DNA of 64,000 nucleotides from Thermoanaerobaculia bacterium (GCA_038245905.1 JBBRRY010000013.1:1-64000); one strand, 5' to 3'; counted from the stretch's first letter, positions 1,469 through 61,263 are shown. Notes: generated by a model from the sequence alone, not told the origin. Made by a program: numbers and translations.

Positions 1469-2346
1469 ACATCCCGCCGCACCCGCCGTCCGAGCCATTC
1501 GAAGAATCTTCTTCTTCCGCCACCCCGGCGGGACGCCTGCTCGTCCAGTTCTTCCTGATTCCCGCGTTCGTCGTCGGCGTCGCGGTGTTCGTCTTCTGGC
1601 TCTTCGGCGCCATCGCGGTCGACCGCAAGACCGCCGTTGAGCTCCTGTCCGACGTCAGGACGGGGAGCCGGAACCAGCGCTGGCAATCGGCCTTCGAGCT
1701 CACGAAAAAGCTTCCTGCCATGACGGACCCGAAGGAACGGGCGGCGTTTTCCGCGGCCGCGCTCCGCGCATTCGAAGGCGCCGAAAGCGACGACCCGCGG
1801 GTGAGGCGTTACCTGACGCTCGTCCTCGGACGCCTCGGGGACCCGCGCGCGGTTCCGCTCCTCGAGAAGGCGCTCGACGACAAAGACCCCGAGACGCGTC
1901 TCTACGCCCTCTGGGCGCTCGCGCTCATCGGAAATCCGTCCTCGGCGACGCGCGTCCGGCCGTTGCTCGAGTCCGAGGACGCCGGAATCCGGAAGACGGC
2001 GGCGTACGCCGCGGGCCGCATGGAAGACGGGGAGGCCGTGCCCGCGCTCCGGAAGCTGCTCGGCGATTCCGTCACGGACGTCAGGTGGAACGCGGCGCTC
2101 GCCCTCGCGACGCTCGACGACCCGGCGGGCCGCGACGTCCTCCTCGGGATGTGCGATCGCAACCGGCTGCGGACGACGCCCGGACTTTCCGCGGAGCAGC
2201 AGGAAGACGCGCTTCTCAACGGCCTCCGGGGCCTCGTCCTGCTGCACGACTCCACGGCGGCCGCGGTCGGCGGGGCGATGGCCGAGAAGGACCCGTCCCT
2301 GCGCGTGCGGCGCGAGGCGAAGAAGATCCTCGGAAACGCTCCTTGA
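1465..2346 (+). CDS. Membrane-anchored HEAT/PBS-lyase-like repeat protein
   Basis: TTG overlaps the ferredoxin stop. One TM helix (LLVQFFLIPAFVVGVAVFVFWLFG), then repeats such as DDPRVRRYLTLVLGRLGDPRAVPLL, DPETRLYALWALALIG, VTDVRWNAALAL. Confidence 0.85.
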   Translation: MNIPPHPPSEPFEESSSSATPAGRLLVQFFLIPAFVVGVAVFVFWLFGAIAVDRKTAVELLSDVRTGSRNQRWQSAFELTKKLPAMTDPKERAAFSAAALRAFEGAESDDPRVRRYLTLVLGRLGDPRAVPLLEKALDDKDPETRLYALWALALIGNPSSATRVRPLLESEDAGIRKTAAYAAGRMEDGEAVPALRKLLGDSVTDVRWNAALALATLDDPAGRDVLLGMCDRNRLRTTPGLSAEQQEDALLNGLRGLVLLHDSTAAAVGGAMAEKDPSLRVRREAKKILGNAP

Positions 2347-2362
2347 CGGAGTCCGGAATTTT

Positions 2363-2387
2363 TGAGACTTTGTCTCACGGTTTTTTT
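2363..2387. promoter_or_regulatory. Palindrome TGAGAC-TTT-GTCTCA followed by a T-run (operator or weak terminator) upstream of the Rieske gene
   Basis: Perfect 6-bp inverted repeat at 2363-2377, then CGGTTTTTTT, in an AT-rich intergenic gap. Confidence 0.35.
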
Positions 2388-2401
2388 CCGGGGGAGTGCG
2401 G

Positions 2402-2944
2402 ATGACGGAATCGGGGTCTCCGGGAGTCTCGGCTGCGGGGAGCGCGGCCGATGCCCCCACGCGCCGCGGTTTCATCAGCTGGCTCGCCGTTGGCTGGCTC
2501 GCGTTCGCCGCCGGCATCGGCGCCTTCGTGACGACGATGGCGCGCTTTCTCTTTCCGAACGTGCTCTTCGAGCCGCCCTCGTCGTTCAAGGCGGGCTTCC
2601 CGCCCGACTACCAGGTCGGCGAAGTGGACGAGCGCTGGAAAGAGAAGTACCAGATCTGGGTCGTGCGCAACACGGAGATGATCTACGCGCTGATCACCGT
2701 CTGCACGCACCTCGGCTGTATCCCGAACTGGCTCGCGGCCCAGAACAAGTTCAAGTGCCCCTGCCACGGCTCGGGCTACTACCGGTCGGGCATCAACTTC
2801 GAGGGCCCGACGCCGCGCCCGCTGGAGCGCGCGGCCATTTCCATTTCACCCGACGACGGACAGATTTTCATCGAAAAGGCCCGGAAGTTTCTCTACGAGA
2901 AGGGCCAGTGGACAGACCCTGCGGCCTTCATCAAGACGACATAG
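2402..2944 (+). CDS. qcrA: Rieske 2Fe-2S subunit of a Rieske/cytochrome b complex (QcrA/PetC-like)
   Basis: Tat-like TRRGF plus TM helix; CTHLGC and CPCHGSGY boxes; GPTPRPL. Confidence 0.95.
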   Translation: MTESGSPGVSAAGSAADAPTRRGFISWLAVGWLAFAAGIGAFVTTMARFLFPNVLFEPPSSFKAGFPPDYQVGEVDERWKEKYQIWVVRNTEMIYALITVCTHLGCIPNWLAAQNKFKCPCHGSGYYRSGINFEGPTPRPLERAAISISPDDGQIFIEKARKFLYEKGQWTDPAAFIKTT

Positions 2945-2962
2945 GAAGAGGATGAGGAAGAG

Positions 2963-2988
2963 AAAGATTTTCTTCGAAGGCAAGAGAG
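2963..2988 (+). repeat. Dispersed AT-rich motif copy (AAAGATTTTCTTCGAAGGCAAGAGAG), intergenic
   Basis: Closely similar to 20700-20729 and to copies at 8067, 9736, 9845, 23091, 60783 and 61006. Confidence 0.65.
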
Positions 2989-2995
2989 TGACGGC

Positions 2996-3790
2996 GTGAG
3001 CCTCGAGAAATCGTGGCGTCGACTGCAGCAGACGGTCGTCGAGACCCAGATCTGGAAATCGATCTTCCGCGTCGGCATCCCGAATACGAATCGCAAGCGC
3101 GTGCTCGCGATGCTCGGGAACGTCGTCCTCCACCTCCACCCTGTGAAGACCCGCAAGTCGGGCGTGAAAATGCGCTACACGTGGTGTGCGGGCGGGATGA
3201 CGTTCTTCCTCTTCCTCGTCCTCACGTTCACGGGCCTTCTTCTCATGTTCTATTACCGGCCCACGATCGAGTACGCATACGGCGACATGCTCGACCTCCG
3301 AGAGCAGGTTCCCTTCGGAATCATGCGTGAGATGCACCGCTGGGGCGCGCACGCGATGGTCATCACCGTCTGGATCCACATGTTTCGCGTGTTCATGACG
3401 GGCTCCTACAAGCCGCCGCGCGAGTTCAACTGGAACGTGGGCGTCGTCCTTCTCGTCCTGACGCTTCTCCTCTCGTTCACGGGCTATCTCCTGCCATGGG
3501 ACCAGCTCGCGATCTGGGCCATCACGGTTGGTTCGAACATGGCGCGCGCGACGCCTCTCGCGGGTTACGAGGGTCCGTTCTCCGCGCAGATCGCGGTGAA
3601 CGGCGTGAACCTCGTGACGGCGGGCAGCGACGCGCGCTTCGGGCTCCTCGGCGGGCGCATCGTGGGCGCGAACGCGCTCCTCCGGTTTTACGTCCTCCAT
3701 TGCGTCTTCATTCCGCTCATCGCCGCGTTCCTCATGGCCGTCCACTTCTGGCGCGTGAGGAAGGACGGCGGAATCTCGGGGCCCCTCTAG
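2996..3790 (+). CDS. qcrB: Cytochrome b6-like subunit (N-terminal half of split cytochrome b)
   Basis: Heme b His pairs in [18 protein letters not shown] and [10 protein letters not shown]...MAVH; GYLLPWDQ; WCAGG carries the heme ci-type Cys. Confidence 0.95.
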
Positions 3791-3812
3791 AGCTCATGCC
3801 CGCCATCAGCCG

Positions 3813-4889
3813 ATGACAGCCATCAAGGACCTCATCAACTGGCTTGCGTCGCCCGCGATCGCGGTGACGCTTTCCATGATCGGCCTCGTTGGGGCGATGT
3901 TCTGCAAGCCGCTGTGGACGAAGAAGGGCGGGCTTCTGCTCTTCGCGACGCTCATCGGCGGGTTCTTGTTCAGCTTCACCGACCCGAACTTCCGCATCGT
4001 CGCGACGATGCCCGACAACGTGCCGATTCTCGGCATGCTGTTCCTCGTCGGCTTCTTCTTCTGGTACGCGATGTACCAGGCGCACCTCAACGACGCGCGG
4101 CTCGCGAAGGGCCTTCCGCCCCTCGAGAAGGAAGACAGCGACAAGAAAGTCTTCTCGTGGCCCGACCTCGTCTATGTCGAGCTCATCTCCGTGGTCGTGT
4201 GCTCGATCGTCATGATTCTCTGGTCGATCGTCCTGAAGGCTCCTCTCGAAGAACCCGCGAACCCCGGGGCCGCTCCGAATCCGGCGAAGGCGCCGTGGTA
4301 CTTCCTCGGCCTTCAGGAGCTGCTCGTCTACTTCGACCCGTGGATGGCGGGCGTCGTCCTTCCCACGCTGATCATCGTGGGACTCATGGCGATCCCCTAC
4401 ATCGACACGAACCCGCGTGGGAACGGCTACTTCTCCTTCCGCGAGCGGAAGTGGGAAATCGTCATGTTCTGCTTCGGATTCATCATCCTGTGGGTCGTCC
4501 TGATCATCCTCGGGACGTTCCTCCGGGGCCCGAACTGGAACTTCTTCGGGCCCTACGAATACTGGGACCCGAACAAGCTCGTTCCGCTGAACAACGTGAG
4601 CGTCTCGGAGATCTTCTGGGTGAAGTGGCTGAAGACGGCGCTTCCGACGTTTTGGTTGAAGCGTGAGCTGCCCGGCATCCTTCTCGTGCTGCTCTATATG
4701 GGGGCGCTGCCGGGTCTTCTCGGCAAGACGCTCTTCAAGCGCTTCTACGAAAAGATGGGCACGGTGCGCTTCTTCGTGGGCGTGAACCTGTTTCTCATCA
4801 TGTTCGCGGTGCCCATCAAGATGTACCTCCGGTGGATCTTCAACCTCAAGTACATCGTCAACATCCAGGAGTTCAGCTTCAACATCTAG
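3813..4889 (+). CDS. Cytochrome b subunit IV (PetD-like, with extra TM helices)
   Basis: WPDLVYVE, APLEEPANP..PNPAKAPWYFLGLQELL (PEWY-equivalent loop), IPYID; multiple TM segments. Confidence 0.9.
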   Translation: MTAIKDLINWLASPAIAVTLSMIGLVGAMFCKPLWTKKGGLLLFATLIGGFLFSFTDPNFRIVATMPDNVPILGMLFLVGFFFWYAMYQAHLNDARLAKGLPPLEKEDSDKKVFSWPDLVYVELISVVVCSIVMILWSIVLKAPLEEPANPGAAPNPAKAPWYFLGLQELLVYFDPWMAGVVLPTLIIVGLMAIPYIDTNPRGNGYFSFRERKWEIVMFCFGFIILWVVLIILGTFLRGPNWNFFGPYEYWDPNKLVPLNNVSVSEIFWVKWLKTALPTFWLKRELPGILLVLLYMGALPGLLGKTLFKRFYEKMGTVRFFVGVNLFLIMFAVPIKMYLRWIFNLKYIVNIQEFSFNI

Positions 4890-4890
4890 C

Positions 4891-7800
4891 ATGGCCAAAG
4901 CACCGCCGCCCGAACCGATCGATCACCACTACGACATCCGGAGGCTGACGAAGATCTTCGCGATCACGTCGATCCTCGTGCTGCCGGCGTTCGCGTGGAT
5001 GACGTGGCAGGATTACGGGCGCGACTGGAAATCCTGGCAGAAGAAGTTCGTCGAGAACGACCGCAAGAGAACGCGCGCCGCCCTCCGGACGGCCTCCGAG
5101 AAGATCGACCCCGAGGCCGAGGAGAAATACCTCGAGCAAAAGCGCGAGGGCGCGCGCGAGGTGCGCCGGAACCGCACGGCGTTCTCGGAGGCCGAAGACA
5201 AGGTGCGGAAGACCGAGGGCGCCTGGTACGAGGCCGACCAGGATTTCCGTTTCAAGAAGGCCGAGATGGATACGGCGCGGTACGACTTCGAGACGCGCCG
5301 GAAGGAGAGCCCGAAGTCGGCCTCCACCGCCGCCGCCCGGAAGGACTACGAGCGGCTCAAGGCGGCATACGAGAGCAGCACGGTCGCCGAACAGTCCGCG
5401 CGCGCCGCGTGGGACACCGCGAAGGCCGGGCTCCTTGCGCTCGAGAAGACCCGGAACGACGCCGAGGAAGCGCTCGCGAAGCTGGACGCCGACTACGACC
5501 GCATCCGGGCGAAGCTCGGGACGCTTCGCCAGAACGACGCGTTCTATTTCGTGCGCAACGCGCCCATCGCGGACATGCTCGCTCCGTCCCTCAAGATCCA
5601 GCAGGTGCAGCTCGACGGGCTGTACAACGACGTCAACTTCCTGAAGAGCCAGCGCGTCGACCGGTGCGTCACCTGCCACATCGCGGCCGAGACCCGGGGG
5701 TTCGAGGACAAGGAGAAGTACCCCGAGTCCGTACTGAGGACGCACCCGCGCCTCGACCTCTTCGTCGACTCCAACTCGCCGCACCCGTACGCGACGTTTG
5801 GCTGCACGTCGTGCCACGGCGGACGCGACCGCGCGACCGACTTCACGCGCGCGGGCCACATGCCGAACGACTACGGGCGCTACGAAAAGCTCGCCGCCGA
5901 GCTCCACGAGGGGCGCGACGAGAAGGGGTTTCCGGTCGACGACGACGTCGTGAAGGAAGCCATGGACGAGACGCAGGCGGGCCGCTGGACGAAGGAGTAC
6001 GACTGGGAGGTCGACAAGTACAACGACCTGCCGATGTACCCGATGAAGGCCGTGGAGGCCGGTTGCTTCCGCTGCCACAAGACCGATGCGGGGCACCCGA
6101 AGGCCGCGAAGCTCGATCAGGGCCGCAAGCTCATCGAGCAGCTTGGCTGCTGGAGCTGCCACAAGATGAAGGGCCTCGAGGAGCTGCCGCGCATCGGGCC
6201 GAACCTCTCGCGCGTCGCCTCGAAGACGACGCGCGAGTGGACGGCGCGATGGCTCGTCAACCCGCGGGCCTTTCGCAACAACACGAAGATGCCCCGCTTC
6301 TTCTACCTCGAGAATTTCGAAAGCGAGGCCGGGCACCGGCTCACGGACACGATGGTCGCGGGCGTCACGGCCTATCTCTTCGAGAAGTCCGGAAAGACGG
6401 AGTGGCCGGCGGTCGCGAAGGGGGACGCCGCCCGGGGCCAGCAGCTCTTCGAGAACGTGGGCTGTCAGGGCTGTCACGTGTCGGAGGTGGGCGCCGAACG
6501 ACATGTGATGGACGGCTGGCGCCAGCACGGTCCGAACCTGATCGGGCTCTCCCAGAAGGTGTCGCCGGAGTGGCTCGCGGCCTGGCTGAAGAACCCGAAG
6601 GCCTACAACGCCGAGACGCGGATGCCGAACCTGCGCCTCCAGGACGACGAGATCGCGGATCTCGTGGCCTATCTCATGGCGCGGCCGGCGCAGCCCGAGT
6701 TCCAGCGCAGCCACGCGCCGAAGGCCGACGAGAAAGAGCGCGACGCACTCGTATACGACTACCTCACGCAGACGAAATCCGTCGTGGAGGCGAAAGCCGA
6801 TGTCCTGAAGATGACGCCTCGCGAGAAGGACCTCTTCGTGGGCGAGAAAATCATCGCGCACTACGGGTGCTATGCCTGCCACGCGATTCCGGGATTCGAG
6901 AAGGCAAAGCCGATCGGTGTCGAGCTGTCCGAGTGGGGCAACAAGCCCGTTCATCTCCTCGACTTCGGTTTCCTCCACCTGCCCCACACGCGCGCCGACT
7001 GGTTCCAACAGAAGGCGGGTGAGCCGCGTTCCTTCGATCGCGAGAAGGTGAAGTCGTTCCAGGAGAAGTCGCGCATGCCGCAGTTCTCCCTCTCGCCGGC
7101 GGAGATCGAAGCCGTGGAGACCGCGGTCCTCGGGATGCAGAAGGACGACATGGCCGACGCGCTCAAGGTGGAAGCCACGGGCCCCCGCGCGGCGGTCGAG
7201 GCCGGACGCCGCATCGTGAAGGATTACAACTGCCAGGGCTGCCATATTCTCGAGGACAAGGGCGGGCAGATCCGCGAGGCGCTGACGGCGAACAAGATCG
7301 ACCTCGCGCTCGCGCCGCCCAACATCAAAGGCGAAGGCGCCAAGGTGCAGAGCGACTGGCTCTTCTCCTTCCTGCATGCCCCGCGTTCGGGCCAAATCCG
7401 GCCGTGGTTGAAGGTGCGGATGCCGACGTTCCCATTCAACCCGGACCAGCTCAACGCGCTGACGTCGTATTTTGCGTTGCTCGACAAGGCGCGCTACCCG
7501 TTCGAGGACCGTGTCGAGGGACTCGACGAGCGTTCCCGCACGGCGGGGGCGAAGACGTTCGAGGCGCTCAAGTGCGCCCAGTGCCACCCGACGTCCGAGG
7601 ACGCGTTCGCGCTCGCGATCAAGGCGGGCAAGACTCCGGCGGACCTCGCACCCATTCTCGCGGCCGCGCACAACCGGCTCCGGTACGAGTGGGTCGCGGA
7701 CTGGATCAAGCGGCCAGAGGAGTGGATGCCGGGCACGCGGATGCCCACGAACTTCCCGAAGATGGACGACGGTCCGGGCAAGCCCGAGAAGCGCATCTCG

Positions 7801-8016
7801 CCGCTCGCCCCCGCCCTCGATTCTCCGGCGTTCGCAGGTTTCAAGAAGGATCTCGTCGCGATCTGGGGTTCCGAGGCGGAGGCGAAGGCCTACATCAGCG
7901 ATCCCGACCGCGTCACGAAGGCGCTCCGCGACCACGTCTGGTCGCTCGGCAACGACTTCCTGACGGTGCCCCAGGCGCCGAAAAAGCGGGCGACGACTGT
8001 CGTCGCGTCGCACTGA
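4891..8016 (+). CDS. Membrane-anchored octaheme c-type cytochrome
   Basis: Eight CxxCH motifs: CVTCH, CTSCH, CFRCH, CWSCH, CQGCH, CYACH, CQGCH, CAQCH. N-terminal TM and a long coiled-coil-like segment. Confidence 0.93.
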   Translation: MAKAPPPEPIDHHYDIRRLTKIFAITSILVLPAFAWMTWQDYGRDWKSWQKKFVENDRKRTRAALRTASEKIDPEAEEKYLEQKREGAREVRRNRTAFSEAEDKVRKTEGAWYEADQDFRFKKAEMDTARYDFETRRKESPKSASTAAARKDYERLKAAYESSTVAEQSARAAWDTAKAGLLALEKTRNDAEEALAKLDADYDRIRAKLGTLRQNDAFYFVRNAPIADMLAPSLKIQQVQLDGLYNDVNFLKSQRVDRCVTCHIAAETRGFEDKEKYPESVLRTHPRLDLFVDSNSPHPYATFGCTSCHGGRDRATDFTRAGHMPNDYGRYEKLAAELHEGRDEKGFPVDDDVVKEAMDETQAGRWTKEYDWEVDKYNDLPMYPMKAVEAGCFRCHKTDAGHPKAAKLDQGRKLIEQLGCWSCHKMKGLEELPRIGPNLSRVASKTTREWTARWLVNPRAFRNNTKMPRFFYLENFESEAGHRLTDTMVAGVTAYLFEKSGKTEWPAVAKGDAARGQQLFENVGCQGCHVSEVGAERHVMDGWRQHGPNLIGLSQKVSPEWLAAWLKNPKAYNAETRMPNLRLQDDEIADLVAYLMARPAQPEFQRSHAPKADEKERDALVYDYLTQTKSVVEAKADVLKMTPREKDLFVGEKIIAHYGCYACHAIPGFEKAKPIGVELSEWGNKPVHLLDFGFLHLPHTRADWFQQKAGEPRSFDREKVKSFQEKSRMPQFSLSPAEIEAVETAVLGMQKDDMADALKVEATGPRAAVEAGRRIVKDYNCQGCHILEDKGGQIREALTANKIDLALAPPNIKGEGAKVQSDWLFSFLHAPRSGQIRPWLKVRMPTFPFNPDQLNALTSYFALLDKARYPFEDRVEGLDERSRTAGAKTFEALKCAQCHPTSEDAFALAIKAGKTPADLAPILAAAHNRLRYEWVADWIKRPEEWMPGTRMPTNFPKMDDGPGKPEKRISPLAPALDSPAFAGFKKDLVAIWGSEAEAKAYISDPDRVTKALRDHVWSLGNDFLTVPQAPKKRATTVVASH

Positions 8017-8028
8017 ATAGGAAGACCC

Positions 8029-8793
8029 GTGCGCTTCGTGCACGCGTCACTGCTTCTCGGATCGTTATTTTTTTTCTTAGAAGGAAAAAGGGGAGAAGCG
8101 GATGCTCCCTCTTCACCTTTTAGGAAATCCTCCAGCGCCGCTGCCCCCGCTGCGAAGCAGGAGGCAAGAGACGGGGTCTTCGGCAAAGTCTCTCTCTCCG
8201 GTCCCGTCCCGAAGCTCGCGGCTCGGCCCGTGAACGCGGACGCCGCCGTGTGCGGGCGCACCGACCGCCCAAGCCCGTCGCTCGTCCTCTCGAAGGACAA
8301 GGGCCTCGCGAACGCCGTCGTGTGGCTGGAAGGAGCGAAGGGCCTCGCGCCGCCGAAGGGCCCGTTCCGGCTCGACCAGAAGAACTGCCTCTTCGCGCCT
8401 TACGTGCAGATCGTGTCGAAGGGCGCGCCGGTCGTGTTCGGCAACTCCGACGCGGTCCTACACAACGTCCATGCCGCCACGGCGGGCTCGGCGCTGATCT
8501 TCAACAAGGCGATCCCGACCAAGGGACAGACGTTCACGGAGACGTTCACCGAACCGGGTCTCGTGCGCGTGAAGTGCGACATCCACACGTGGATGACGGC
8601 ATGGCTGTTCGTGGCCGACACGCCGTACGCGGCGGTGACCGACGCGGAGGGCCGCTACGCGTTTCACGGCGTTTCGCAGGGCACCTACCCGCTCCACGCG
8701 TGGCACGAGCTCCTGGGCGAGAAGATCCGGTCCGTCGTCGTGCCCGCGAACGGCGTCGCGCGGGCCGACGTCACGCTGTCACTGGCGGATTGA
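8029..8793 (+). CDS. Secreted cupredoxin-like / carboxypeptidase-regulatory-like domain protein (putative type-1 Cu site)
   Basis: Signal peptide; DQKNCLFAP, LHNVH, KCDIHTWM; AVTDAEGRYAFHGVSQGTYPLHAWHE. Confidence 0.8.
   Translation: MRFVHASLLLGSLFFFLEGKRGEADAPSSPFRKSSSAAAPAAKQEARDGVFGKVSLSGPVPKLAARPVNADAAVCGRTDRPSPSLVLSKDKGLANAVVWLEGAKGLAPPKGPFRLDQKNCLFAPYVQIVSKGAPVVFGNSDAVLHNVHAATAGSALIFNKAIPTKGQTFTETFTEPGLVRVKCDIHTWMTAWLFVADTPYAAVTDAEGRYAFHGVSQGTYPLHAWHELLGEKIRSVVVPANGVARADVTLSLAD
8067..8133. repeat. Convergent pair of dispersed AT-rich motif copies inside a CDS
   Basis: TTTTTTTCTTAGAAGGAAAAAG (+) and GGAGGATTTCCTAAAAGGTGAAGAGGG (-). Confidence 0.6.
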
Positions 8794-9354: not shown

Positions 9355-10196
9355 GCGCGTGCCGCGCTGCTGGTGGGGAGAGTCATGGGCTCGGACAGGA
9401 TACCGAGTCGCGAAAGTGGCCAATCGTAGACGACGGGGTCTTCGGGATTCAGAAGGCGCAGCCAGCCTGTCGCCTCTCGCGACGCGGCGAGGTCCGCGGT
9501 CCTGCGGCGCGTGAGACCGATCCGGCGCGAGATGCGGTGCACGTGGACGTCCATCGGCAGGAGGAGGCGCGCGGGCGTGAAGCGCCCTCCCGTCCAGAGG
9601 CCGAGGTCGAAACCCTCCGTCCGGATCATCCAGCGGAGGAACAGGTGCGAGCGCTTGCACGCGGAGCCGGAGGAGGGGGAGGGGAGAAGAAAACGCACGC
9701 CGCGAGAGATTGGCTTCGGAGAGGAGGAGAAATTCAAGAGATTTCTTTGAAAGGAAGAAAGGGCGGCGACGTAGTCCTCGCCGCCGGCGCATTCTTCGTC
9801 GCCCGCCGCGAACAGGGCGCCCAGAGACCCGTGCGTCTCCCGAGCTCTCTTCACCATTCTAAGAAAATCTTCGACGTCCGACCCTGTCACCCACCGATGC
9901 ACGAAACGCTTCAGCGCCGGGATGTGTCTCTCGTCCCACCCTTCGAGGAATTCCGATGGCCTCGGTCCCAGCACCGCGAGAACGCGCGAGACCGAGGTCT
10001 GGATCGACGCGACGCGGCCGAACGCGAGGGAGGCCGAGAGAAACGCGACGACCTCGCGATCCGCCGAATCGGGGAACTGGTGGGCAAAGACGAGCGGGTC
10101 CGAATCGAGGCGGCGGGAGCGCCACTCGCTCCTGAGAGCCTCGAGGCGCTCGCCGAGGAGGGTGAGGTCCCGGGGGCCGCCCGTGCGCCGTCTCAT
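9351..10196 (-). CDS. TIGR02757/DUF2400 family protein
   Basis: DREVVAFLSASLAFGRV, SACKRSHLFLRWMIR, DLGLW, PMDVHVHRI, PEDPVVYDW. Confidence 0.88.
   Translation of the reverse strand: MRRRTGGPRDLTLLGERLEALRSEWRSRRLDSDPLVFAHQFPDSADREVVAFLSASLAFGRVASIQTSVSRVLAVLGPRPSEFLEGWDERHIPALKRFVHRWVTGSDVEDFLRMVKRARETHGSLGALFAAGDEECAGGEDYVAALSSFQRNLLNFSSSPKPISRGVRFLLPSPSSGSACKRSHLFLRWMIRTEGFDLGLWTGGRFTPARLLLPMDVHVHRISRRIGLTRRRTADLAASREATGWLRLLNPEDPVVYDWPLSRLGILSEPMTLPTSSAARA
9736..9872. repeat. Convergent pair of dispersed AT-rich motif copies inside a CDS
   Basis: AAGAGATTTCTTTGAAAGGAAGAAAGGG (+) and GAAGATTTTCTTAGAATGGTGAAGAGAG (-). Confidence 0.62.
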
Positions 10197-10202
10197 GGGC
10201 CT

Positions 10203-10212: not shown

Positions 10213-10219
10213 CCCCCGA

Positions 10220-13283: not shown

Positions 13284-13321
13284 CTTCGTAATACGATCCG
13301 TGGAGTCTTGGAGGAAATGCC

Positions 13322-17921: not shown

Positions 17922-18688
17922 GGGAGGTTCTCGCCTTTGCCACAGCCGACGACGTCGCGGACGCCGCGGCCTTCCTCTTCGTGAATCTCGCGGCGCAGGC
18001 GGTCCGAGACCGCGGAGCGTTCTACGTGGCCCTGGCGGGCGGCACGACGCCTCTCTCCTGCTACCGGCTTCTCTCCGCGCCGCTGATTTCCTCGCGGGTC
18101 GATTGGGAGAAGACGCAGGTTTTCTTCGGAGACGAAAGGTGCGTGCCGGAGGGTCACCCGGACCGGAATGACGACGCCGCTGCGGTCGCGCTCCTGAACC
18201 ACGTTTCCATTCCGGGAAAGAACATCCACCGCGTCCCCGCGACGGAACGGGACGGCGCCGAGCGTTACGAATCCGAAATCCGGGGTGCGTTTTCGATTTT
18301 CTCTCCCTCTTCCGACAAGGGAGTCCCCCGCTTCGATCTCGTGTTCCTCGGCATGGGAGCGGACGGCCACACGGCCTCGCTGTTTCCGGGGCGGGCGTCT
18401 CTCGATGAGACTCAGCGGCTCGTCCTGCGTGTCGACGACGCTCCGAAGCCTCCGCCCTGCCGCGTGACGTTCACGCTGCCGATCGTGAACGCAGCACGGC
18501 ACGTGGCTCTTCTCGTCACGGGGAAGGAGAAGGCGGCGGCGCTGTCCCGGGTCCTTCTCGAGGACGCGGCGCTGCCCGCGGCGCGCGTGCGTCCCCCCTC
18601 GGGGATGCTGACGATTCTCGCGGACGCCGCGGCGGCTTCGGTTTCGCGCAAGCCGCCGGCGCCGCCGACGGCCGGGAGCCCCCGTTGA
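17918..18688 (+). CDS. pgl: 6-phosphogluconolactonase
   Basis: ALAGGTTP, FFGDERCVP, FDLVFLGMGADGHTASLFP, RVTFTLP. Confidence 0.95.
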   Translation: MREVLAFATADDVADAAAFLFVNLAAQAVRDRGAFYVALAGGTTPLSCYRLLSAPLISSRVDWEKTQVFFGDERCVPEGHPDRNDDAAAVALLNHVSIPGKNIHRVPATERDGAERYESEIRGAFSIFSPSSDKGVPRFDLVFLGMGADGHTASLFPGRASLDETQRLVLRVDDAPKPPPCRVTFTLPIVNAARHVALLVTGKEKAAALSRVLLEDAALPAARVRPPSGMLTILADAAAASVSRKPPAPPTAGSPR

Positions 18689-19662: not shown

Positions 19663-19674
19663 TGGGGACGAGCG

Positions 19675-20688: not shown

Positions 20689-20699
20689 ACTTCGGCACG

Positions 20700-20729
20700 G
20701 AAGAAGATTTCTTCGAAAGGAAGAGAGAG
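20700..20729 (+). repeat. Dispersed AT-rich motif copy (GAAGAAGATTTCTTCGAAAGGAAGAGAGAG), intergenic
   Basis: Matches 2963-2988. Confidence 0.65.
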
Positions 20730-20733
20730 TCCG

Positions 20734-21246: not shown

Positions 21247-21302
21247 CCCGCCTGAAGTACTCCTAAATTACGCTTGCGGGGCTCTCCCCGCGGAGGGTTT
21301 CC

Positions 21303-22669: not shown

Positions 22670-23107
22670 ATGCTTCTCCTTTCCCGCACGATCCATTTCA
22701 ATGCGGCCCACCGCCTTTTCAATACGCAGAAGAGCGAAGAGTGGAACCGCGCGACGTACGGGGACGCCTCGAATCTCGCGGGCTACGGGCACAACTACAC
22801 GCTCGATGTGTCCGTGGCGGGCGCCCCAGATGCGGAGTCGTCGATGATCGTGAACCTCACGGACCTCGATCGCATCCTCAAAGAGGAGGTCGATCGGCCG
22901 CTCGACCACCACAACCTGAATCACGAGATCCCCGAGTTCCGGACGCGCGTTCCCACGGCCGAGAATCTCGCGCGGTGGATCTGGGAGCGCGTCGCAGCGC
23001 GCATCGAAAAGGAGCGCTGGCCCTGCCGGCTCGCGGCGTTGAAGCTCACCGTCACGCCCACGTTTTCGGTCGAATTGGTTTCGGAAGGGAAAGAGAAGAC
23101 TTCTTAG
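22670..23107 (+). CDS. PTPS/QueD-family T-fold protein with divergent active site
   Basis: FNAAHRL, GHNY, LDHHNLN, PTAENLARWIW. Confidence 0.85.
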   Translation: MLLLSRTIHFNAAHRLFNTQKSEEWNRATYGDASNLAGYGHNYTLDVSVAGAPDAESSMIVNLTDLDRILKEEVDRPLDHHNLNHEIPEFRTRVPTAENLARWIWERVAARIEKERWPCRLAALKLTVTPTFSVELVSEGKEKTS

Positions 23108-23937
23108 AAGGGGTGCCTTCTTCTCTCTCTCTTCCGAAAACTCAAATGTTCTTTTGCGCCTGCGACGCGTGCCGCGACCTCGATCGCCTCGCGCCCCCAC
23201 GCGACCTCAGCTGGAGCGTGGGCGTCGGACGAGAAGACGATCGGGACGCCTGCCGCGACGAGGCTCCTGAGGAGCGGGGGAGCGGGGTACTCCTCGCCGA
23301 CGGCCTTCCGGAGGCCGGCGCTCGAGACCTCGATGGCCACGCCTGCCCGCCGCGTGGCGTCGACCGCCGCGGCCTCCGCGTCGGCGACCTCATGCGGCAT
23401 CCGGTGGCCGAACTTCTTCGGGAGGTCGAAGTGCGTGAGGACGTCGAAGAGGCCCGTCGCGGCGGCCTTGCCGATCAGTCGGTAGTACTCGCGCCAGAGC
23501 GTCGCCGTGCCTTCACGTTCATGCCGCGCCCCGGACCCTGGCGCGTCGATCCAGTCGCCCGCGACCCAGTGGACCGACCCGAGGACGACGTCCCAGTCGT
23601 GGGCGCGGAGGATCTCCTCGAGGGCGGCCTCGTGGCCCACGGCGTAGTCGGCCTCGAGGCCGAGGAGCACGTCGATCCGGCCCGCGAACTCCTCGCGAAG
23701 CGCGCGGACTTCCTCAACGTAGCCGGGCAGCTCGGCGCGGGTCATCGCAATGCAAGGATCGGGATCTTCGCCGGGCAGAAAATACAGGGGAATGTGATCC
23801 GTGAAGGCAATCTCCGACAGTCCGCGGGAGAGTGCCGCGATAACGTATTCCCGCGTGGCGCCGCCGGCGTGGCCGCAGCGCGCCGTGTGGACGTGGTAAT
23901 CCGTCTGGTACGCGTCCTGCATTACTTCCGGCATCAT
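23104..23937 (-). CDS. PHP-family histidinol-phosphatase (HisJ-like)
   Basis: [37 protein letters not shown]. Start could be 23937, 23934 or 23922. Confidence 0.9.
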
Positions 23938-31359: not shown

Positions 31360-31389
31360 GGCCGGCTCGCGGCGCTTTCGGATTCTTGA

Positions 31390-52368: not shown

Positions 52369-52375
52369 GCGACGA

Positions 52376-53662: not shown

Positions 53663-53702
53663 CAGGGGCGGGAGTGTAGCGGCACCGGCGTCCCGGCTCG
53701 TC

Positions 53703-54563: not shown

Positions 54564-54590
54564 GGGGGCCTCTTGTTTAAGATGGAGCGT

Positions 54591-56144
54591 ATGTCCGGCC
54601 CCCGGATTCTCGTCTTTTTCGGCCTTCTGCTTCTCGCGGCGGGCGTCGTCATCGGCATGCCGTCGTCGCTCGCGCCCGCGGCCGTCGTGATCGCGGCGGC
54701 CGCCGTGCTCGTCCTCATCGGCGCGGACCGGGCCTCGTACAACCCGGGTTTGCGCCCCGACCAGGTGACGTCCAGCCGCGCGGCGTTCGGCCCGGCCGTC
54801 GACGCGCTGGAATCGGTCGCCGTCTACACGCTGGAGCGTTCGGGCCGGATCGGCTACGCGAACCTGGGAGCGCGGCGAGTACTGGACGCGGCCGGGCGCG
54901 GCGTGGAGGGGAAATTGGCGTCGGAGTTCCCCGCCGCCGGTTCCGAGACTCCCGAGATGGTCGAGGGCCTGAACGAGGTCTTCGAAACCGGCAGGCCCCG
55001 GGTGGCGCGGCGGATCATGCTGCTCGCGGACGGCACGACGCGCGTCGAGTCCATCGTCTCGATGACGCCGGTCGTAAGGTACGGCAAGGTCGTCGAAGCG
55101 GCCGTCTGGCGAGTCGATACGCGCGGTCCCGTCGGCGGCGACGAGCACCGCGCGCGCCTCCTCGACTCCTCGCCAGCGGGGCTCCTCGGCGTGGACGCGT
55201 CGGGCCGGATCGAGGCCGTGAGCCGCCGGCTCGCGGAATGGGTCGGGCGCCGTGCGGACGCTCTCGAGGGGCTCGACGTCGAGCGTACCGAGGTGCTGCC
55301 CCAGGCTCTTCGCGGGCACATACGGGCGCACGCCGTGAATCGCGCCGCCCAAGGCACGCCGACCGCGGTCGTCGAGGACGACGTCGTCCTCGTCACGCCG
55401 GACGGGGTCTCACGGGTGTTCCACATCCTGGTCGCCCCGCGCCCGGGCGGAGGCGCCGATGTCGTATTTCTCGACGGCGTCTCGCGGAGGCGCCTCCTCG
55501 CCGAGCTGGACGCAGCACGTCGGGCGCTCGCCGATGCGCGCGAGACCGCCGTGGATGTTCTCCATTCCACGACGAAAGACCTCCGTGCGCGTGCCCGCGA
55601 GATCGTGGCCGCGGCACGGCGCGCGGCGGACGAGTCTTCCGGTCCGATCCAGCGCGCCAAGGCCGAAGCCGAGCTCCTCGTGACGAGCGACGCGTTCCTT
55701 GCGCGGGTGAGCGAGACCGTGCCGGAAGAGGACGGGTCCAGCCGCCGTTCGCTCGGCGGCACGGATGGCCGTCCGCGAGTGTTGCTCGTGGAAGACAACG
55801 AGGAAAATCGCGAGCTCCTTGCCCACATGCTGAGATCCCGAGGCGCCGAAGTCCTCACGGCGGCGAACGGTCGCGAGGCCGTGGACGCGGCGGCGGGCTT
55901 CCGCTTCGACTTCGTCCTCCTGGATCTTCAGATGCCCACGATGGACGGCTTTCAGGTCCTGAGGCGGCTGCGTTCCCTGCCCGGTGGCGGCCGCCTGCCG
56001 GTCGTCGCCCTCACCGCGCTCACGTCCGACCTCGTCAAGGAGCGCTGCGAGGCCGAGGGCATGAACGACTTCGTGAGCAAGCCCGTGACGCTCGCGCGCA
56101 TCGGTGAGCTCGTTGCGAAATGGGGCCGGGCGGGAAGAGCCTGA
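54591..56144 (+). CDS. Membrane PAS-domain protein with C-terminal receiver domain; kinase core appears absent
   Basis: Two N-terminal TMs; two PAS-like regions; receiver VLLVEDN..LLDLQMP..ALTA..SKP; no HATPase N/G boxes. Confidence 0.82.
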   Translation: MSGPRILVFFGLLLLAAGVVIGMPSSLAPAAVVIAAAAVLVLIGADRASYNPGLRPDQVTSSRAAFGPAVDALESVAVYTLERSGRIGYANLGARRVLDAAGRGVEGKLASEFPAAGSETPEMVEGLNEVFETGRPRVARRIMLLADGTTRVESIVSMTPVVRYGKVVEAAVWRVDTRGPVGGDEHRARLLDSSPAGLLGVDASGRIEAVSRRLAEWVGRRADALEGLDVERTEVLPQALRGHIRAHAVNRAAQGTPTAVVEDDVVLVTPDGVSRVFHILVAPRPGGGADVVFLDGVSRRRLLAELDAARRALADARETAVDVLHSTTKDLRARAREIVAAARRAADESSGPIQRAKAEAELLVTSDAFLARVSETVPEEDGSSRRSLGGTDGRPRVLLVEDNEENRELLAHMLRSRGAEVLTAANGREAVDAAAGFRFDFVLLDLQMPTMDGFQVLRRLRSLPGGGRLPVVALTALTSDLVKERCEAEGMNDFVSKPVTLARIGELVAKWGRAGRA

Positions 56145-56147
56145 GGA

Positions 56148-57677
56148 CTACTTCGCCGGCTGCATGAGCTGCCAGTTGCCGGTACCGCCTACATTCGGAT
56201 TGAAGCCCGCGTCGTTGGAGTGCTGGTACCCGCCCTGACCGTCCGTCCAGTGGTACTTCTCGGTGTAGGCGTGCTCGGAGGTTCCGTAGTAGGGGTCCTG
56301 CATGCGCTCGGTGCCGCGGATGTACTGCGAGAAGGAGTCGCTCGTGTGCTGAGCGCTCCGGTTCGCCGCCTGCCGCTGCGCGTCCATCGAGGCGATCATG
56401 GAGTCGTTGTTCGCGCTGATCTGCCGGCTGAGGGCGCCCGCCGCGGCGATCCGCGAGTAGCCCGCGGCCAGGTTGCGCTCGAATTGCGCCGTCAGCTGGT
56501 TCTGCACCTGCTGTCGCCTTTGGTCCCACACGGGGTCGTGCTGGATCGAGGACATCATGTAGCCGAGGAGAGGATGCAGGCTGTCTAGCTGCCCGTCCCG
56601 CGCGCCCATGCTGTGCACGTAACCGAGGACGCGGTGGTTTTCATACGAGGTGCCCTGCGGGCCGTGGTAGGGGATGCGGTTCGGGTGCGAGAGCAGCAGG
56701 AAGAAATCCTCGTCGATCGGGTGCCCGTTCAGCGTGTAGCGCACGCGCGCCGCGAGCGACTCGCCCGCGAAGGGAGGCTTGTGGAGGGCCGCAGCGAGGT
56801 TGCCGATCGGCCTCATCCCGACGATCCTGAGGTTCTGCGCTCTCCCGCGGTAGCGGCCGATCACGAACGATCGCATCGCCTCGGTGGCCGTGATGCCGGG
56901 CCGGTGGATCATCCCGAGCGTCTTGCCGCCGACGCTTACCGAACGGTCCGCGGGCTCGGTCCAGTAGAAACATTCGGCGGGAAACGTCTCGAGCCACGCC
57001 GAGCCGTCGGCGGCGGCGAATCGCGAGCCCACCTGCACGGGCCAGCTCGTGGCCGAATAGTTCCAGACGACGTTGCTCGTCGCGGTCCACCCATCCGGCA
57101 CGGCGACCGTGCTCACGCGGAGCCCGCCCTGAGTCTTGTCCACGATCGCGTAAGGATGAAAGGTCGTGCGGGAAAAGCGCTGCGCGATCTGGCTGAAGAG
57201 ACCCGCGGGGGCGGAGCGAGGCGCCGGCTGCGCCTTGCCCGCCTGGGCGCCGGGCGCGTTCCACCTCATCTGGTACAGCATCACGTAGACGACGACTCCC
57301 GTCACGGAGACGTAGAGCCAGATCGGGAGCGTCCAACGCGCGAGGCGCCGGTGCTTCTCGAACCGGCCGCGCCACGCGAGCGAGAACGTCACGACGGCCA
57401 TCGGGGCGACGGCGGCGGCGAGGACCGTGTGCGTGAGGAGGATGCCGAGGTAAAGCGTGCGCGCGCCGCCCGTCCCGGGAAACCGGACGCTTCCCACCCG
57501 CGCGTGGTACGTGAGATAGCTCGCGAGGAAGAGCGTCGAACAGGTGAATGCGGCAATCATGACGCGGCGGTGGGCGTCTCTCCGGCCCGAGCGGATGAGG
57601 ACCCAGCCGACGGCGAGGAGAACGGCGCTCGTCGCGTTCAGGCAGGCGTTCAGCGTAGGCAGGTCGCGGACGGTCAC
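56148..57677 (-). CDS. DUF420 (CtaM/YozB-like) membrane domain fused to a ~370-aa soluble domain
   Basis: GGAGG plus GTG 57677. LPTLNACLNA, AHRRVM, FLASYLTYH, ILLTHTVLA, HRRLARWTLPIWLYVSVTGVVVY; the frame continues without a stop to 56148. Confidence 0.85.
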   Translation of the reverse strand: MTVRDLPTLNACLNATSAVLLAVGWVLIRSGRRDAHRRVMIAAFTCSTLFLASYLTYHARVGSVRFPGTGGARTLYLGILLTHTVLAAAVAPMAVVTFSLAWRGRFEKHRRLARWTLPIWLYVSVTGVVVYVMLYQMRWNAPGAQAGKAQPAPRSAPAGLFSQIAQRFSRTTFHPYAIVDKTQGGLRVSTVAVPDGWTATSNVVWNYSATSWPVQVGSRFAAADGSAWLETFPAECFYWTEPADRSVSVGGKTLGMIHRPGITATEAMRSFVIGRYRGRAQNLRIVGMRPIGNLAAALHKPPFAGESLAARVRYTLNGHPIDEDFFLLLSHPNRIPYHGPQGTSYENHRVLGYVHSMGARDGQLDSLHPLLGYMMSSIQHDPVWDQRRQQVQNQLTAQFERNLAAGYSRIAAAGALSRQISANNDSMIASMDAQRQAANRSAQHTSDSFSQYIRGTERMQDPYYGTSEHAYTEKYHWTDGQGGYQHSNDAGFNPNVGGTGNWQLMQPAK

Positions 57678-58456: not shown

Positions 58457-59403
58457 GCCGCGTCCTCTTCGCGGAAGCGGCGCCCGGTCTTCGCGATGAA
58501 GACGTCCTCGAGCGAGGGCGCGCCGAGCGTCACGGACTTGAACGCGCCCGGGAACGCTTCGACGAGGCGCGGGACGAACGTGTGCGCGGCCGGCCGCTCG
58601 ACTCTCACAGTGGGCCCGACCACCGTGATCCGCCCTGCCTCGGCGCCGAAACGGCTTCCGATCGCGACCGCGAGGGCGGGCGCGCCGGTCTCGTCCTTCG
58701 CCTCCACCGTCACGACGTCGCCGCCCACGGTCGCCTTCAGCGCGGCGGGCGTGTCGAGCGCGAGGAGCCGCCCGCGGTCGAGGATTCCGATGCGGTGCGC
58801 GGCCTCGGCCTCCTCGAAGAGGTGGGTCGTCAGGAGCACCGCCGTGCCCCCGCGGGCCAGAGAGCCGAGCAGCCCGACGAGATCGCGCCGCGCGCCCGGG
58901 TCGAGGCCCGTCGACGGCTCGTCGAGGAGGAGCACGGGCGGAGCGTGGAGGAGCGCCTTGGCGATCTCGACGCGGCGCGCGAGGCCGCCTGAGAGAGTCT
59001 CGACGAGATCGCCGGCGCGATCCTCGAGGCCGAAGGTCGCGAGAAGCTCGCCGATCTTCGTCCGAAGGGGCGGGCCCGAAAGAGAGTAGAGCGCTGCCTG
59101 CAAGGTGAGGTTCTCCTCGACGGTCAGCTTCTTGTCGAGGCTGGGCGCCTGAAAGACGACGCCGAGGTGCCGGCGCACGTCGCGGCCGGCCGACGCGGGA
59201 TCGAGCCCGTCGATCGAAAAGCTCCCGGCGCCGGGCGGCAGCAGCGTCGCGAGGATCCGGAACAGCGTGGTCTTGCCGCCGCCGTTCGGGCCGAGGAGCG
59301 CGAAGATTTCGCCGCGCGCGACGGAGAACGTGACGTCGGCGAGCGCGGCGCGCGCCCCGAAAGAGCGGGAGAGGGAGCGGGCTTCGACGGCGGGAGGCGT
59401 CAC
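58453..59403 (-). CDS. ABC transporter ATP-binding protein
   Basis: GPNGGGKTT, LSGG, LLLDEP, TTH. Confidence 0.95.
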   Translation of the reverse strand: MTPPAVEARSLSRSFGARAALADVTFSVARGEIFALLGPNGGGKTTLFRILATLLPPGAGSFSIDGLDPASAGRDVRRHLGVVFQAPSLDKKLTVEENLTLQAALYSLSGPPLRTKIGELLATFGLEDRAGDLVETLSGGLARRVEIAKALLHAPPVLLLDEPSTGLDPGARRDLVGLLGSLARGGTAVLLTTHLFEEAEAAHRIGILDRGRLLALDTPAALKATVGGDVVTVEAKDETGAPALAVAIGSRFGAEAGRITVVGPTVRVERPAAHTFVPRLVEAFPGAFKSVTLGAPSLEDVFIAKTGRRFREEDAA

Positions 59404-59428
59404 GTGCGGCTGCAGGCTTCGGAACGCG

Positions 59429-60310
59429 TCAGACGCGGTCGAGGACGAGGAGGACGAGGATCGCCGGCAGCCATCCGATCGACGCCAGGAAGAGCGAGCG
59501 CGCGTGGCCGTCCGAGATGTCCCTTGCGAACCTCAGCGAGGACGCCAGGAACAGGAGGGTCATCACGAACGCCCCAAAGGCGTACGCGAACCCCGCCGTG
59601 CCGACGAGAGACGGCAGGAGGCTGACGGGCAGGAGGATGGCCGTCCAGAGGAGGGTCTGGCGGGCGGTGCTGCGCCCGGTCGGGTCGACGACGGGCAGGA
59701 TGACGACGCCCGCCTTCGCGTAGTCGACACGGTGGCGCCACCCGATCGCGAAGAAGTGCGGCAGCTGCCAGACGAACAGGATCGCGAAGAGCGCGAGCCC
59801 GGGCAGGCCGAGTGCGCCCGCCGCGGCCGTGTACCCGCCGAGCGGCGGCAGCGCGCCGGGGATCGCGCCGACGATGGTCGAGGCCGGCGAGCGCGTCTTC
59901 ATCGGGGTGTACATGCAGACGTACGAGACGAGCGTGAACGCGGCGAGCGCGGTCGTGATCCCGTTCGTGAAAAGGAGGAGCTCGACGAGGCCGACGACTG
60001 AGAGCGCGCCGGCGAAGAGCGCCGCGCCCGCCATCGGGAGGCGACCCGACGGGAGCGGACGGGCGGCGGTCCGCTCCATCCGGCCGTCGAGATCCTTCTC
60101 CCAGACCTGGTTGAAGGCGCTCGTCCCGGATGCGACGAACGCCGTCCCGGCGAGGGTGTGGAGGAGCAGCGCGGCGTCCATGCCCGAGAGCGGCCCCTTC
60201 GTGCCCGCCACGAAGCCCACGAAGGCCGTCATGACGACGAACAGCGTGATGCGCGGCTTCGTGAGCGCGACATACGACGACAGGGCGGACGGGTTGCGAC
60301 GGAGGCTCAT
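59429..60310 (-). CDS. ctaB: Protoheme IX farnesyltransferase (heme o synthase)
   Basis: LTKPRI, NQVWEKDLDGRMERTAARPLPSG, GAIPGALPPL, WQLPHF, DYAKAG. Confidence 0.96.
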   Translation of the reverse strand: MSLRRNPSALSSYVALTKPRITLFVVMTAFVGFVAGTKGPLSGMDAALLLHTLAGTAFVASGTSAFNQVWEKDLDGRMERTAARPLPSGRLPMAGAALFAGALSVVGLVELLLFTNGITTALAAFTLVSYVCMYTPMKTRSPASTIVGAIPGALPPLGGYTAAAGALGLPGLALFAILFVWQLPHFFAIGWRHRVDYAKAGVVILPVVDPTGRSTARQTLLWTAILLPVSLLPSLVGTAGFAYAFGAFVMTLLFLASSLRFARDISDGHARSLFLASIGWLPAILVLLVLDRV

Positions 60311-61263
60311 GCGCGACGGGCGGAGCTTAGCGCGTTCCCGGGGTTCCGGCAGGCACCGAGGCAGACGAGCGCGAGGACCCCCGTCACCCAGCACAGGGCT
60401 CCGGTGGCGAGGTGGGCGGTCGTGAGGGACGGGGCCTTCCGCGACCAGACGGAGAGCGCGCCCAGGAGCACTTGAATCGTGACGAGGCCGGCCCAAAAGG
60501 AAGCGGCGATCCCGAAGAGGGGCCGCGAAGGGGAGATCTTTGAAAGGGCGCCTGCGGCGCGAAAGACGAGCAGGACGACGACGACGGCTCCGAGCCGGTG
60601 GGCGATGTGAATCGGCACGCCGGAAAGAGCCAGATCGGCGGCGGAGGGAAAGAACCCTCCAAAGGAAGTCGGGAAATCCGGGATCGCGAGGCCCGCGCCC
60701 GTGTGCCGCATGACAGCACCGAGAACGATCTGGATGTAGATCGCGGCGGTGGCGGCGAGCGTCCACCGGAACGCGCGCATCGCCTCTTCACCCTTCAAAG
60801 AAATCCGAAGATTTTCTTCGACCAACTCCCTCCATGTCTTCGAGCACATGAGTGCGACGGCCGCGGTGAGGGCGAAGACGATCTCGGCGAGGGCGGCGTG
60901 CGCGGAGGAGATGGCTGGCGGAAGGAGAAGCAGCACGGTCAGCCCGCCCAGAACCGCCTGAAGCAGGATCGCCACGAAGGCGGCCGCAGCGAGCCGCTTG
61001 ACCGTCTTTCTTCCTTCTAAGAAAAAAAGAATTGCGCCCAGCTCCAGGCCCACCAATGTGGAAACGCCGGCGGCGATGAGGCGGTGCCCGTGCTCATACA
61101 GGATGCCCCCCACCATGGGAGGCATGACCTTCCCGTAGGAGAGAGGCCAGTCCGGAACGGCGAGGCCCGACTCCGTGGACGTGACGAGTGCGCCCGCGAC
61201 GAGAAGCAGGAAGACGCAGACGGCGACCGTCCGCGTTCCGACCCTCAGGAAGGCTTCACGCAC
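60307..61263 (-). CDS. ctaA: Heme A synthase (COX15/CtaA)
   Basis: GLAVPDWP, EHGHR, QAVLGGLTV, HAALA, GAVMRH, HIAHR, TAHLATG. Confidence 0.92.
   Translation of the reverse strand: MREAFLRVGTRTVAVCVFLLLVAGALVTSTESGLAVPDWPLSYGKVMPPMVGGILYEHGHRLIAAGVSTLVGLELGAILFFLEGRKTVKRLAAAAFVAILLQAVLGGLTVLLLLPPAISSAHAALAEIVFALTAAVALMCSKTWRELVEENLRISLKGEEAMRAFRWTLAATAAIYIQIVLGAVMRHTGAGLAIPDFPTSFGGFFPSAADLALSGVPIHIAHRLGAVVVVLLVFRAAGALSKISPSRPLFGIAASFWAGLVTIQVLLGALSVWSRKAPSLTTAHLATGALCWVTGVLALVCLGACRNPGNALSSARRA
60783..61030. repeat. Cluster of dispersed AT-rich motif copies inside ctaA
   Basis: GGATTTCTTTGAAGGGTGAAGAGG (-, 60783-60806); GAAGATTTTCTTCGA (+, 60807-60821); TTTTTTTCTTAGAAGGAAGAAAG (-, 61006-61028). 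Confidence 0.6.

Follow-up and report, generated by a model that had tools for sequence, protein, structure and literature searches.

Why should a short AT-rich word recur, in both orientations and in genes as well as spacers, in a chromosome that is otherwise very rich in GC? The question is raised by a stretch of 64,000 nucleotides from a Thermoanaerobaculia bacterium (GCA_038245905.1), hereafter the window, which is contig C13:1-64000 of a 3.80-Mb draft genome (G000; 113 contigs, GC 0.678, completeness 96%, 16S rRNA not present in the assembly). A sequence-only reading of the window had listed 12 copies of the word and had seen in them a possible lineage-specific DNA signal resembling uptake sequences or matS/KOPS-type sites (KOPS, FtsK-orienting polar sequences), or a relic of a tiny repeat element. 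Below, a single copy of the word is called an arm, and 'genus' refers to the same-genus group of the source genome, uncultured GC-rich bacteria of sediment and soil. Genes were called with our own codon-usage caller, which is crude, and those in the window were checked with Pfam; since the calls are home-made, the intergenic and coding shares given below are approximate.

The motif is real and strongly non-random. Its core, TTTCTTNGAA, occurs 285 times genome-wide, and these instances were used to build a 33-nt weight matrix. Their alignment gives a purine run of ~15 nt followed by GA TTTCTT H GAA D G G K GAAGAG, that is, an asymmetric, AT-rich word of ~30 nt in a 68% GC genome, in which the sole dyad of the core is 4+1+4 (TTCT-T-AGAA). 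As the matrix was trained on the same genome, only the contrast with null models counts, for which we used an order-4 Markov genome, synonymous-codon shuffling within genes and codon-order shuffling. Genome-wide, 668, 536 and 378 sites score above 16, 20 and 25, respectively, versus 29, 3 and 1 in the Markov genome, which at the weak threshold of 10 produces 214 sites. The 2371 strong open reading frames (ORFs) contain 303 sites scoring above 20, versus a mean of 31 (maximum 37) after synonymous-codon shuffling and a mean of 0.7 after codon-order shuffling. The enrichment over a codon-preserving null, a comparison that the sequence-only reading had called for, is thus present, and the synonymous-codon null is a conservative one, since the peptides that the motif encodes survive the shuffling together with their rare codons. 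These codons are indeed rare in the genome, as had been claimed: TTA makes up 0.2 per 1000, AGA 2% of the arginine codons, TTT 11% of the phenylalanine codons and CTT 9% of the leucine codons. Overall, there is about one copy per 6 kb.

What the copies have in common besides the word is a rule of orientation. Between neighbouring copies at most 400 bp apart (644 copies in total), the facing arrangement (+-) occurs 197 times, versus 20 for -+, 32 for ++ and 25 for --. Counted by arm, a facing partner (score above 10, 30-400 bp away) was found for 401 of the 529 strong copies (76%) and a divergent partner for 39. The inverted pairs that had been mentioned in passing by the sequence-only reading are therefore borne out, and the facing rule is the dominant property of the motif. 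In 234 unique pairs the core-to-core distance ranges from 38 to ~380 bp with a mode of 85-105 bp; the interior is ordinary unique DNA (GC 0.70), and no signal was found at the pair midpoints. Arms within a pair are as similar to each other as to permuted partners (identity 0.430 vs 0.429, z = 0.24), and cognate arms form duplexes of about the same energy as non-cognate arms (-31.0 vs -30.1 kcal/mol, p = 0.10). Since both likeness and complementarity within pairs are at chance level, each arm matches the consensus on its own, and the pair is neither a copied inverted repeat nor a co-evolving stem. Folded as single-stranded DNA (ssDNA), six arms of the window reached -1.6 to -4.9 kcal/mol (z-scores -1.14 to +1.17). 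Clusters of four to five arms, considered as multi-copy 'source' loci, are merely adjacent pairs in genes.

The signal is at the DNA level and symmetric with respect to transcription. Called ORFs contain 493 of the 644 copies, 338 copies lie at least 45 nt inside strong ORFs, and all six frame/strand classes are used. The gene-upstream and gene-downstream arms score alike (27.6 vs 28.4, p = 0.33), and the position of pairs within genes is uniform. Of 151 intergenic copies, 89 have A as the variable base of the word; in the two frames where an A there makes TAG or TAA, this holds for 0 of 49 and 4 of 85 copies. As the stop-making A is avoided in those two frames, the copies are translated as part of their host proteins, and A is the base of the 'true' word. 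The host genes of the DUF2400/TIGR02757 type and ctaA were confirmed by Pfam and by homologues, with which the copies are in frame. Nine rows from other genera of the order served as outgroup alignment, three of them from the genomes G019 and G024, which are flagged as unpublished; the rows of G020, G021 and G027 give the same alignment picture. In DUF2400 the arm read as EDFLRMVKR is aligned with AALLWVIAH-type residues of the outgroup homologues and shows no insertion or deletion (indel), and the spacing between the landmarks HRW and GSL is 20 residues in G000 and in the outgroups alike; the arm region of CtaA has a 1-residue indel relative to the outgroups. The orthologue alignment that had been proposed for telling insertion from recoding thus gives recoding in place: the pair interiors are the host's ancestral coding DNA, and the arms replace residues where they stand.

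New sites come about mainly through substitution; some are lost again, and sites are maintained under constraint at the nucleotide level. Orthologues were compared for the DUF2400 pair in 20 species and for a 20-kb syntenic stretch in 17 species. The DUF2400 pair kept its position in all loci and species compared (20 of 20 and 17 of 17, respectively), and third-codon identity was 0.75 in its arms versus 0.57 in the flanking codons (20 species, one locus). Together with the use of six frames and the tenfold excess over the synonymous-codon null, this supports the earlier claim that selection acts on the DNA and not on the protein. An orthologous locus with the motif is present in 29 of 29 genus genomes, which, with the frame-aware avoidance of stop codons, rules out an assembly artefact, a doubt that the sequence-only reading had itself raised. 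A different history is seen in the 6-phosphogluconolactonase (pgl) gene, where a facing pair is present in 7 species and absent in 8. The alignment derives both arms, in these same 7 species, from a proto-site through point changes that leave the length unaltered; the seven share several other substitutions in the alignment, a grouping read from alignment columns rather than from a tree. The purine runs beside the arms are rich in indels, and in 4 of 20 loci (4 of 17 species) an extra third arm lies inside the DUF2400 pair, with an insertion of ~30-45 nt.

The word is genus-wide and, within our sample, restricted to one genus. Its 15-mer form was found in 18 of 18 same-genus genomes (12-76 matches, a 6-fold spread, with none for the reversed control); among 12 genomes from the order's other genera, one had it. 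The 13-mer had 75-123 matches in five of five genus genomes versus 0-8 in 76 other genomes of the class (49 genera sampled), with 0 matches in two other genera of the same family, and the 9-mer core had 122-264 matches in the genus and elsewhere at most the control level. The lineage specificity that had been surmised from the window alone is thus supported, the word being at background level in the 76 other genomes. Scanning two other genera by k-mer (400 kb of G027, 171 kb of G082) returned other repeats and no counterpart motif. Along the chromosome the ~370 units are placed nearly at random and slightly clustered (mean 1.0 per 10-kb bin, variance/mean 1.38), and copies are denser in intergenic DNA (0.65 per kb) than in ORFs (0.14 per kb). 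Among the spacers, those between co-directional genes are richer in copies (0.82 per kb) than those between divergent genes (0.39 per kb), 14 copies lie between convergent genes, and the densest 10-kb windows are long co-directional gene runs. Strand counts are equal (62 forward and 56 reverse in G000, 73 and 73 in G011), and no strand switch is seen among the 100 places listed for 3 Mb of one G011 contig, on which ori and ter were not located. Of the polarity that the sequence-only reading had ascribed to the motif, the asymmetry of the word stands and a strand bias at chromosome level does not; the equal counts speak against strand-polar signals of the KOPS, matS or Chi type.

We read the facing pair as a putative paired recognition site for a genus-specific DNA-binding factor, and rate the chance that this is right at about even. 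Independent arms, strict orientation, flexible spacing, symmetry with respect to transcription and conservation of sequence together suggest that the duplex is read by a trans-acting factor which binds each arm and acts on the pair, from which we infer a protein or ribonucleoprotein that binds double-stranded DNA. The unit would consist of two asymmetric sites of ~30 nt that face one another, with 40-400 bp of unremarkable and in most cases coding DNA between them, and would be read in the duplex by a sequence-specific factor restricted to the genus. Two protomers, or two DNA-binding modules, might each read one arm independently, and the modules, once bound, would communicate with each other over the intervening DNA, their inside/outside geometry being fixed. 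Units would be found at places where the surrounding sequence can accommodate them, either between cistrons or in protein regions that vary; their arms would be created by point substitution from chance proto-sites and be kept by purifying selection or by a drive at the DNA level. As to the role, we put chromosome architecture first (bridging or wrapping of ~100 bp, or a topological or tracking barrier) and recognition of self-DNA in DNA exchange second. A genome search for a histone-fold protein gave 0 matches.

One specific form of an architectural role is suggested by analogy with tracking systems. The loop anchors of CTCF and cohesin and the head-to-head sites of Type III restriction enzymes are asymmetric sites that act in one relative orientation, at variable distance and with no helical phasing. 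The facing pairs are alike in being orientation-dependent asymmetric sites, and they could be a counterpart of the convergent-site rule of CTCF and cohesin: chromosome-organizing anchors, independent of helical phase, whose readers track along or wrap the ~100 bp between the arms and which would set barriers or clamps about every 10 kb, encoded in genes and paid for in rare codons and altered residues. The likeness is one of analogy, the distances here are just 40-400 bp, and motor and reader are hypothetical, so that in this particular form we consider the idea a long shot.

Several observations weigh against a dedicated reader of the pair. The factor that would read the pair is hypothetical, and so is its binding. 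Looping proteins that act over less than 150 bp usually impose a phasing of ~10.5 bp, and no robust phasing of this kind was found in the arm spacing (amplitude 0.088, p = 0.045); a periodogram of the 234 pairs gave 9 and ~45 bp as best periods, a weak result (global p = 0.04). The arms can pair as RNA or ssDNA (-31 vs -23 kcal/mol for random DNA), as follows from both matching the consensus. The irregular spacing along the chromosome expressed by the variance/mean of 1.38 does not favour a strict role at domain boundaries. Lastly, both the turnover between species and the enrichment in tolerant DNA fit a drive of the uptake type as well as they fit selection for binding.

Arm-to-arm distances clump near 95, 122, 147 and 177 bp, which is not significant after correction for the periods tried. 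A helical periodicity or a ladder of ~30 bp is not claimed, given the weak periodogram and the spacings of orthologous pairs, which drift continuously from 115 to 133 bp.

The explanation that comes closest is a signal of the uptake type, a 'self' mark spread by molecular drive. By analogy with the uptake signal sequences (USS) of Pasteurellaceae and the DNA uptake sequences (DUS) of Neisseriaceae, word-bearing DNA, ideally with a facing pair whose arms lie side by side when the duplex is folded, would be preferentially taken up or recombined, so that substitutions towards the consensus would spread. Uptake sequences are described in PMC2817400 as lineage-specific words with hundreds to thousands of copies, in coding DNA, with effects of reading frame and a preference for poorly conserved residues. 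The present word resembles them in being an over-represented lineage word that entered coding DNA by substitution, in several frames and equally on both strands, with hundreds of copies, frame effects, poorly conserved host residues and turnover; its restriction to the genus recalls a clade 'dialect', and its near-random placement with enrichment in tolerant DNA fits as well. It differs in being a facing pair at variable distance, ~30 nt long, AT-rich and several-fold sparser: H. influenzae has 1,471 uptake-sequence copies (PMC2817400), or about one per 1.2 kb with the genome size as commonly given, versus about one per 6 kb here. Genes for ComEC and DprA are present in the genome, which says little because they are common in control genomes (10 and 11 of 14, respectively); the genus is uncultured, so competence, and with it biased uptake, is hypothetical. 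To our knowledge, the known uptake signals work as single copies, and we know of no orientation rule for them, while 76% of the strong copies here have a facing partner. An uptake-type drive would hence explain everything except the pair rule, and it is ranked second, after architecture; we consider it unlikely. The hyper-abundant word HIP1 (highly iterated palindrome 1, GCGATCGC) of cyanobacteria is likewise conserved within and between ORFs and taken as selected; PMC5861425 reports no evident role in peptide, RNA or expression and proposes one in chromosome or nucleoid structure, and in later work HIP1 has been connected with transformation and gene transfer. HIP1, however, is palindromic over all its 8 bp, is linked to methyltransferases and follows no pair rule, whereas the present word is long, asymmetric and paired. 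An element acting in RNA would explain the facing rule differently. Transcripts of either strand would carry a purine-rich arm first and a pyrimidine-rich arm second, and the long-range stem between them would be cut or bound, as in processing of the RNase III type or stabilization of cistron junctions. This agrees with the identical arm order in transcripts of either strand, with the ability of the arms to pair and with the higher copy density in co-directional than in divergent spacers. Such a stem should nevertheless show compensatory variation, and there is none, cognate arms being no more complementary than non-cognate ones; furthermore, a specific sequence is conserved beyond complementarity, the six single arms do not fold, the window has no Rfam match, and 14 copies lie between convergent genes. 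We regard an RNA-level role as distinctly unlikely.

The in-place replacement of residues also bears on a selfish short repeat, be it a miniature inverted-repeat transposable element (MITE), a mobile doublet of repetitive extragenic palindromic sequences (REPs; the doublet being known as REPIN) or short-patch gene conversion, with copies that decay. Like MITEs (surveyed in PMC11602168), including in-frame types such as the Rickettsia palindromic elements, the pairs have inverted terminal arms, a short interior and translated copies in genes; MITEs, however, are insertions of whole elements, whereas here the interior is ancestral host DNA and the arms overwrite codons. For REPs, roles in supercoiling, termination and mRNA stability have been suggested (PMC3733652). 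The likeness to REPs, REPINs and bacterial interspersed mosaic elements (BIMEs) lies in short arms, frequent inverted doublets and a few hundred units per genome; it ends with REPs being extragenic, each palindromic and tagged with GTAG or CGTC, while the arms do not fold, lie in ORFs for the larger part and have no such tag in their consensus. REPs also depend on a REP-associated tyrosine transposase (RAYT), and the Y1 transposase domain PF01797 had 0 matches in G000 (6 of 14 genomes in the control search). At three transposase loci, from the two families that were searched and not from others, near-matches to the core numbered 0, 0 and 1, which is chance level. The extra DUF2400 arm with its insertion, the 15-mer copy numbers of 12 to 76 between species and the indel-rich purine runs beside the arms would suit a repeat that spreads; the birth of new arms by point mutation, the chance-level similarity of arms within pairs and the purifying selection on arms at synonymous sites do not, and we consider a selfish origin very unlikely. 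The relic of a tiny repeat element that the sequence-only reading had allowed for is not supported on the same evidence, namely substitution origin, chance-level arm likeness, no RAYT and no matching ends at the three transposase loci. Intragenic invertons, in which a recombinase flips the segment between the arms, would likewise have inverted repeats around 40-400 bp and one consensus at many sites. However, inversion in silico leaves the ORF open in 44 of 102 pairs and breaks it in 58, no better than control segments (41-78% by frame class); a serine recombinase (Resolvase) domain was not found in G000 in a search that did not include tyrosine recombinases; and both arrangements of an inverted repeat would serve a recombinase, yet facing pairs outnumber divergent ones by about 10:1. 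Of the joints in the assembled contigs of four runs, 123 lay outside the list and none of those listed changes strand, although contigs cannot show rare variants, so this is silent on inversion. Invertons seem extremely improbable. A promoter or ribosome-binding site was rejected, as the 60 nt upstream of same-strand starts hold 39 of 624 copies, versus 43 in the mirror control, and no start-codon signal follows downstream. The signal fits no described family whose defining features could be tested, and no description of the motif was found among the papers listed for the class, for inverted repeats and for genome repeats (supplements lay outside this search).

In the window itself, one facing pair lies inside the DUF2400 gene (9351-10196, minus strand). 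Its left arm (9730..9762, plus strand, 9742+) scores 36.1 and is read antisense as ..SSFQRNLL.., and its right arm (9846..9878, minus strand, 9866-), 124 bp from its partner, scores 33.1 and gives EDFLRMVKR in sense reading. A second facing pair is intergenic, downstream of a multihaem cytochrome gene: the left arm (8061..8093, plus strand, 8073+; 27.9) was found in 9 of 17 species, most others being not alignable there, and the right arm (8107..8139, minus strand, 8127-; 24.3), at a core-to-core distance of 54 bp, in 8 of 17. In ctaA (60307-61263, minus strand) a strong arm (60783..60815, minus strand, 60803-; 32.4) lies in a variable loop read as ..ISLKGEE.., and another (61004..61036, minus strand, 61024-; 27.2) is read as ..FFLEGRK.. 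and has the 1-residue indel relative to the outgroups; their left partners, 60527-60548+ and 60807-60821+, score below 9, the latter being a fragment, and are decayed partners at best. These two are the ones that fail among the 12 copies listed from sequence alone, the other 10 scoring above 16. All 12 stretches have the sequence that had been described for them; the 18-mer shared by the copies at 8067 and 61006 and the common ending GGTGAAGAG of those at 8107, 9845 and 60783 were read in the sequence as stated.

The remaining arms of the window are single or nearly so. A strong arm (2957..2989, plus strand, 2969+; 33.2) lies in the spacer that separates the Rieske gene from the cytochrome b gene; 10 of 17 species have it at the orthologous position, and 4 others are alignable and have no motif there. 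Another strong arm (20696..20728, plus strand, 20708+; 34.3), between the FBPase and FKBP genes, is present in 5 of 17. In a related population, seen in contigs of two runs from another study, 20670-20843 (the spacer and the start of the FKBP gene) is replaced by 38 other letters, and arm 20708 is absent. A weak arm (1487..1519, minus strand, 1507-; 16.6) lies near the 5' end of a HEAT-repeat gene (Pfam HEAT_2, 1465-2346). The moderate arm 18109..18141 (plus strand, 18121+; 20.2), overlooked by the sequence-only reading, is inside the pgl gene and present in G000 only; the seven species with a facing pair in this gene have it instead at the window-equivalent positions 18087+ and 18223-. Finally, an arm that spans the 3' ends of two convergent genes, PTPS and PHP (23088..23120, plus strand, 23100+; 21.5) has a very weak facing partner (23121..23153, minus strand; 9.3), which may be a chance match.

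Some observations concern the surroundings of the motif. Positions 24000-60000 form 36 kb with no strong copy, though with housekeeping genes (L21, L27, Obg, EPSP synthase), and GC is higher (0.69-0.75) over 34-56 kb. Positions 2396-8016 hold a co-directional cluster of a Rieske protein, a split cytochrome b and a 1041-aa multihaem/cytochrome c protein, and ctaA and ctaB are located at 59429-61263. Elsewhere in the genome, 11 arms have the same extra word of ~13 nt (..CCGAAGAGCAC..) just outside the purine run, several of them soon after a stop codon (C1:64519, C1:109966, C1:256956, C14:37868, C26:56693 and six more); these arms may form a sub-family, or the extra word may be a second signal at the ends of genes. 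The sole match to DDE_Tnp_1 (C26:761-2195) is split over two overlapping frames (311 + 230 aa) at the start of its contig, like a frameshifted copy of an insertion sequence, with no arms nearby. In G027, from another family of the same order, positions C1:100001-500000 contain tandem arrays with a 7-nt unit, of two kinds and inverted around GC-rich, hairpin-like centres; they apparently lie just after gene ends (e.g., 21278-21340, 31367-31434 and 130340-130392 of the joined stretch). K-mer enrichment in G082 is dominated by a long gene with tandem coding repeats of ~150 bp (multiples of 150) at ~51500-56300 of the first 60 kb of contig C2.

For genome analysis, the word is a sharp marker of the genus in metagenomes, and it calls for caution with gene callers and with scans for codon usage and horizontal transfer, in which such AT-rich patches look anomalous. 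If the facing pairs do have a dedicated reader, they would be a genome-wide DNA signal of an undescribed kind, long, asymmetric and valid only as facing copies, and important enough to overwrite codons of housekeeping enzymes and to be kept through the radiation of a whole genus. They would also show, in a clean natural case, to what extent a protein sequence gives way to a constraint at the DNA level, and would turn into a testable question how an uncultured, environmentally common group organizes, exchanges or protects its chromosome.

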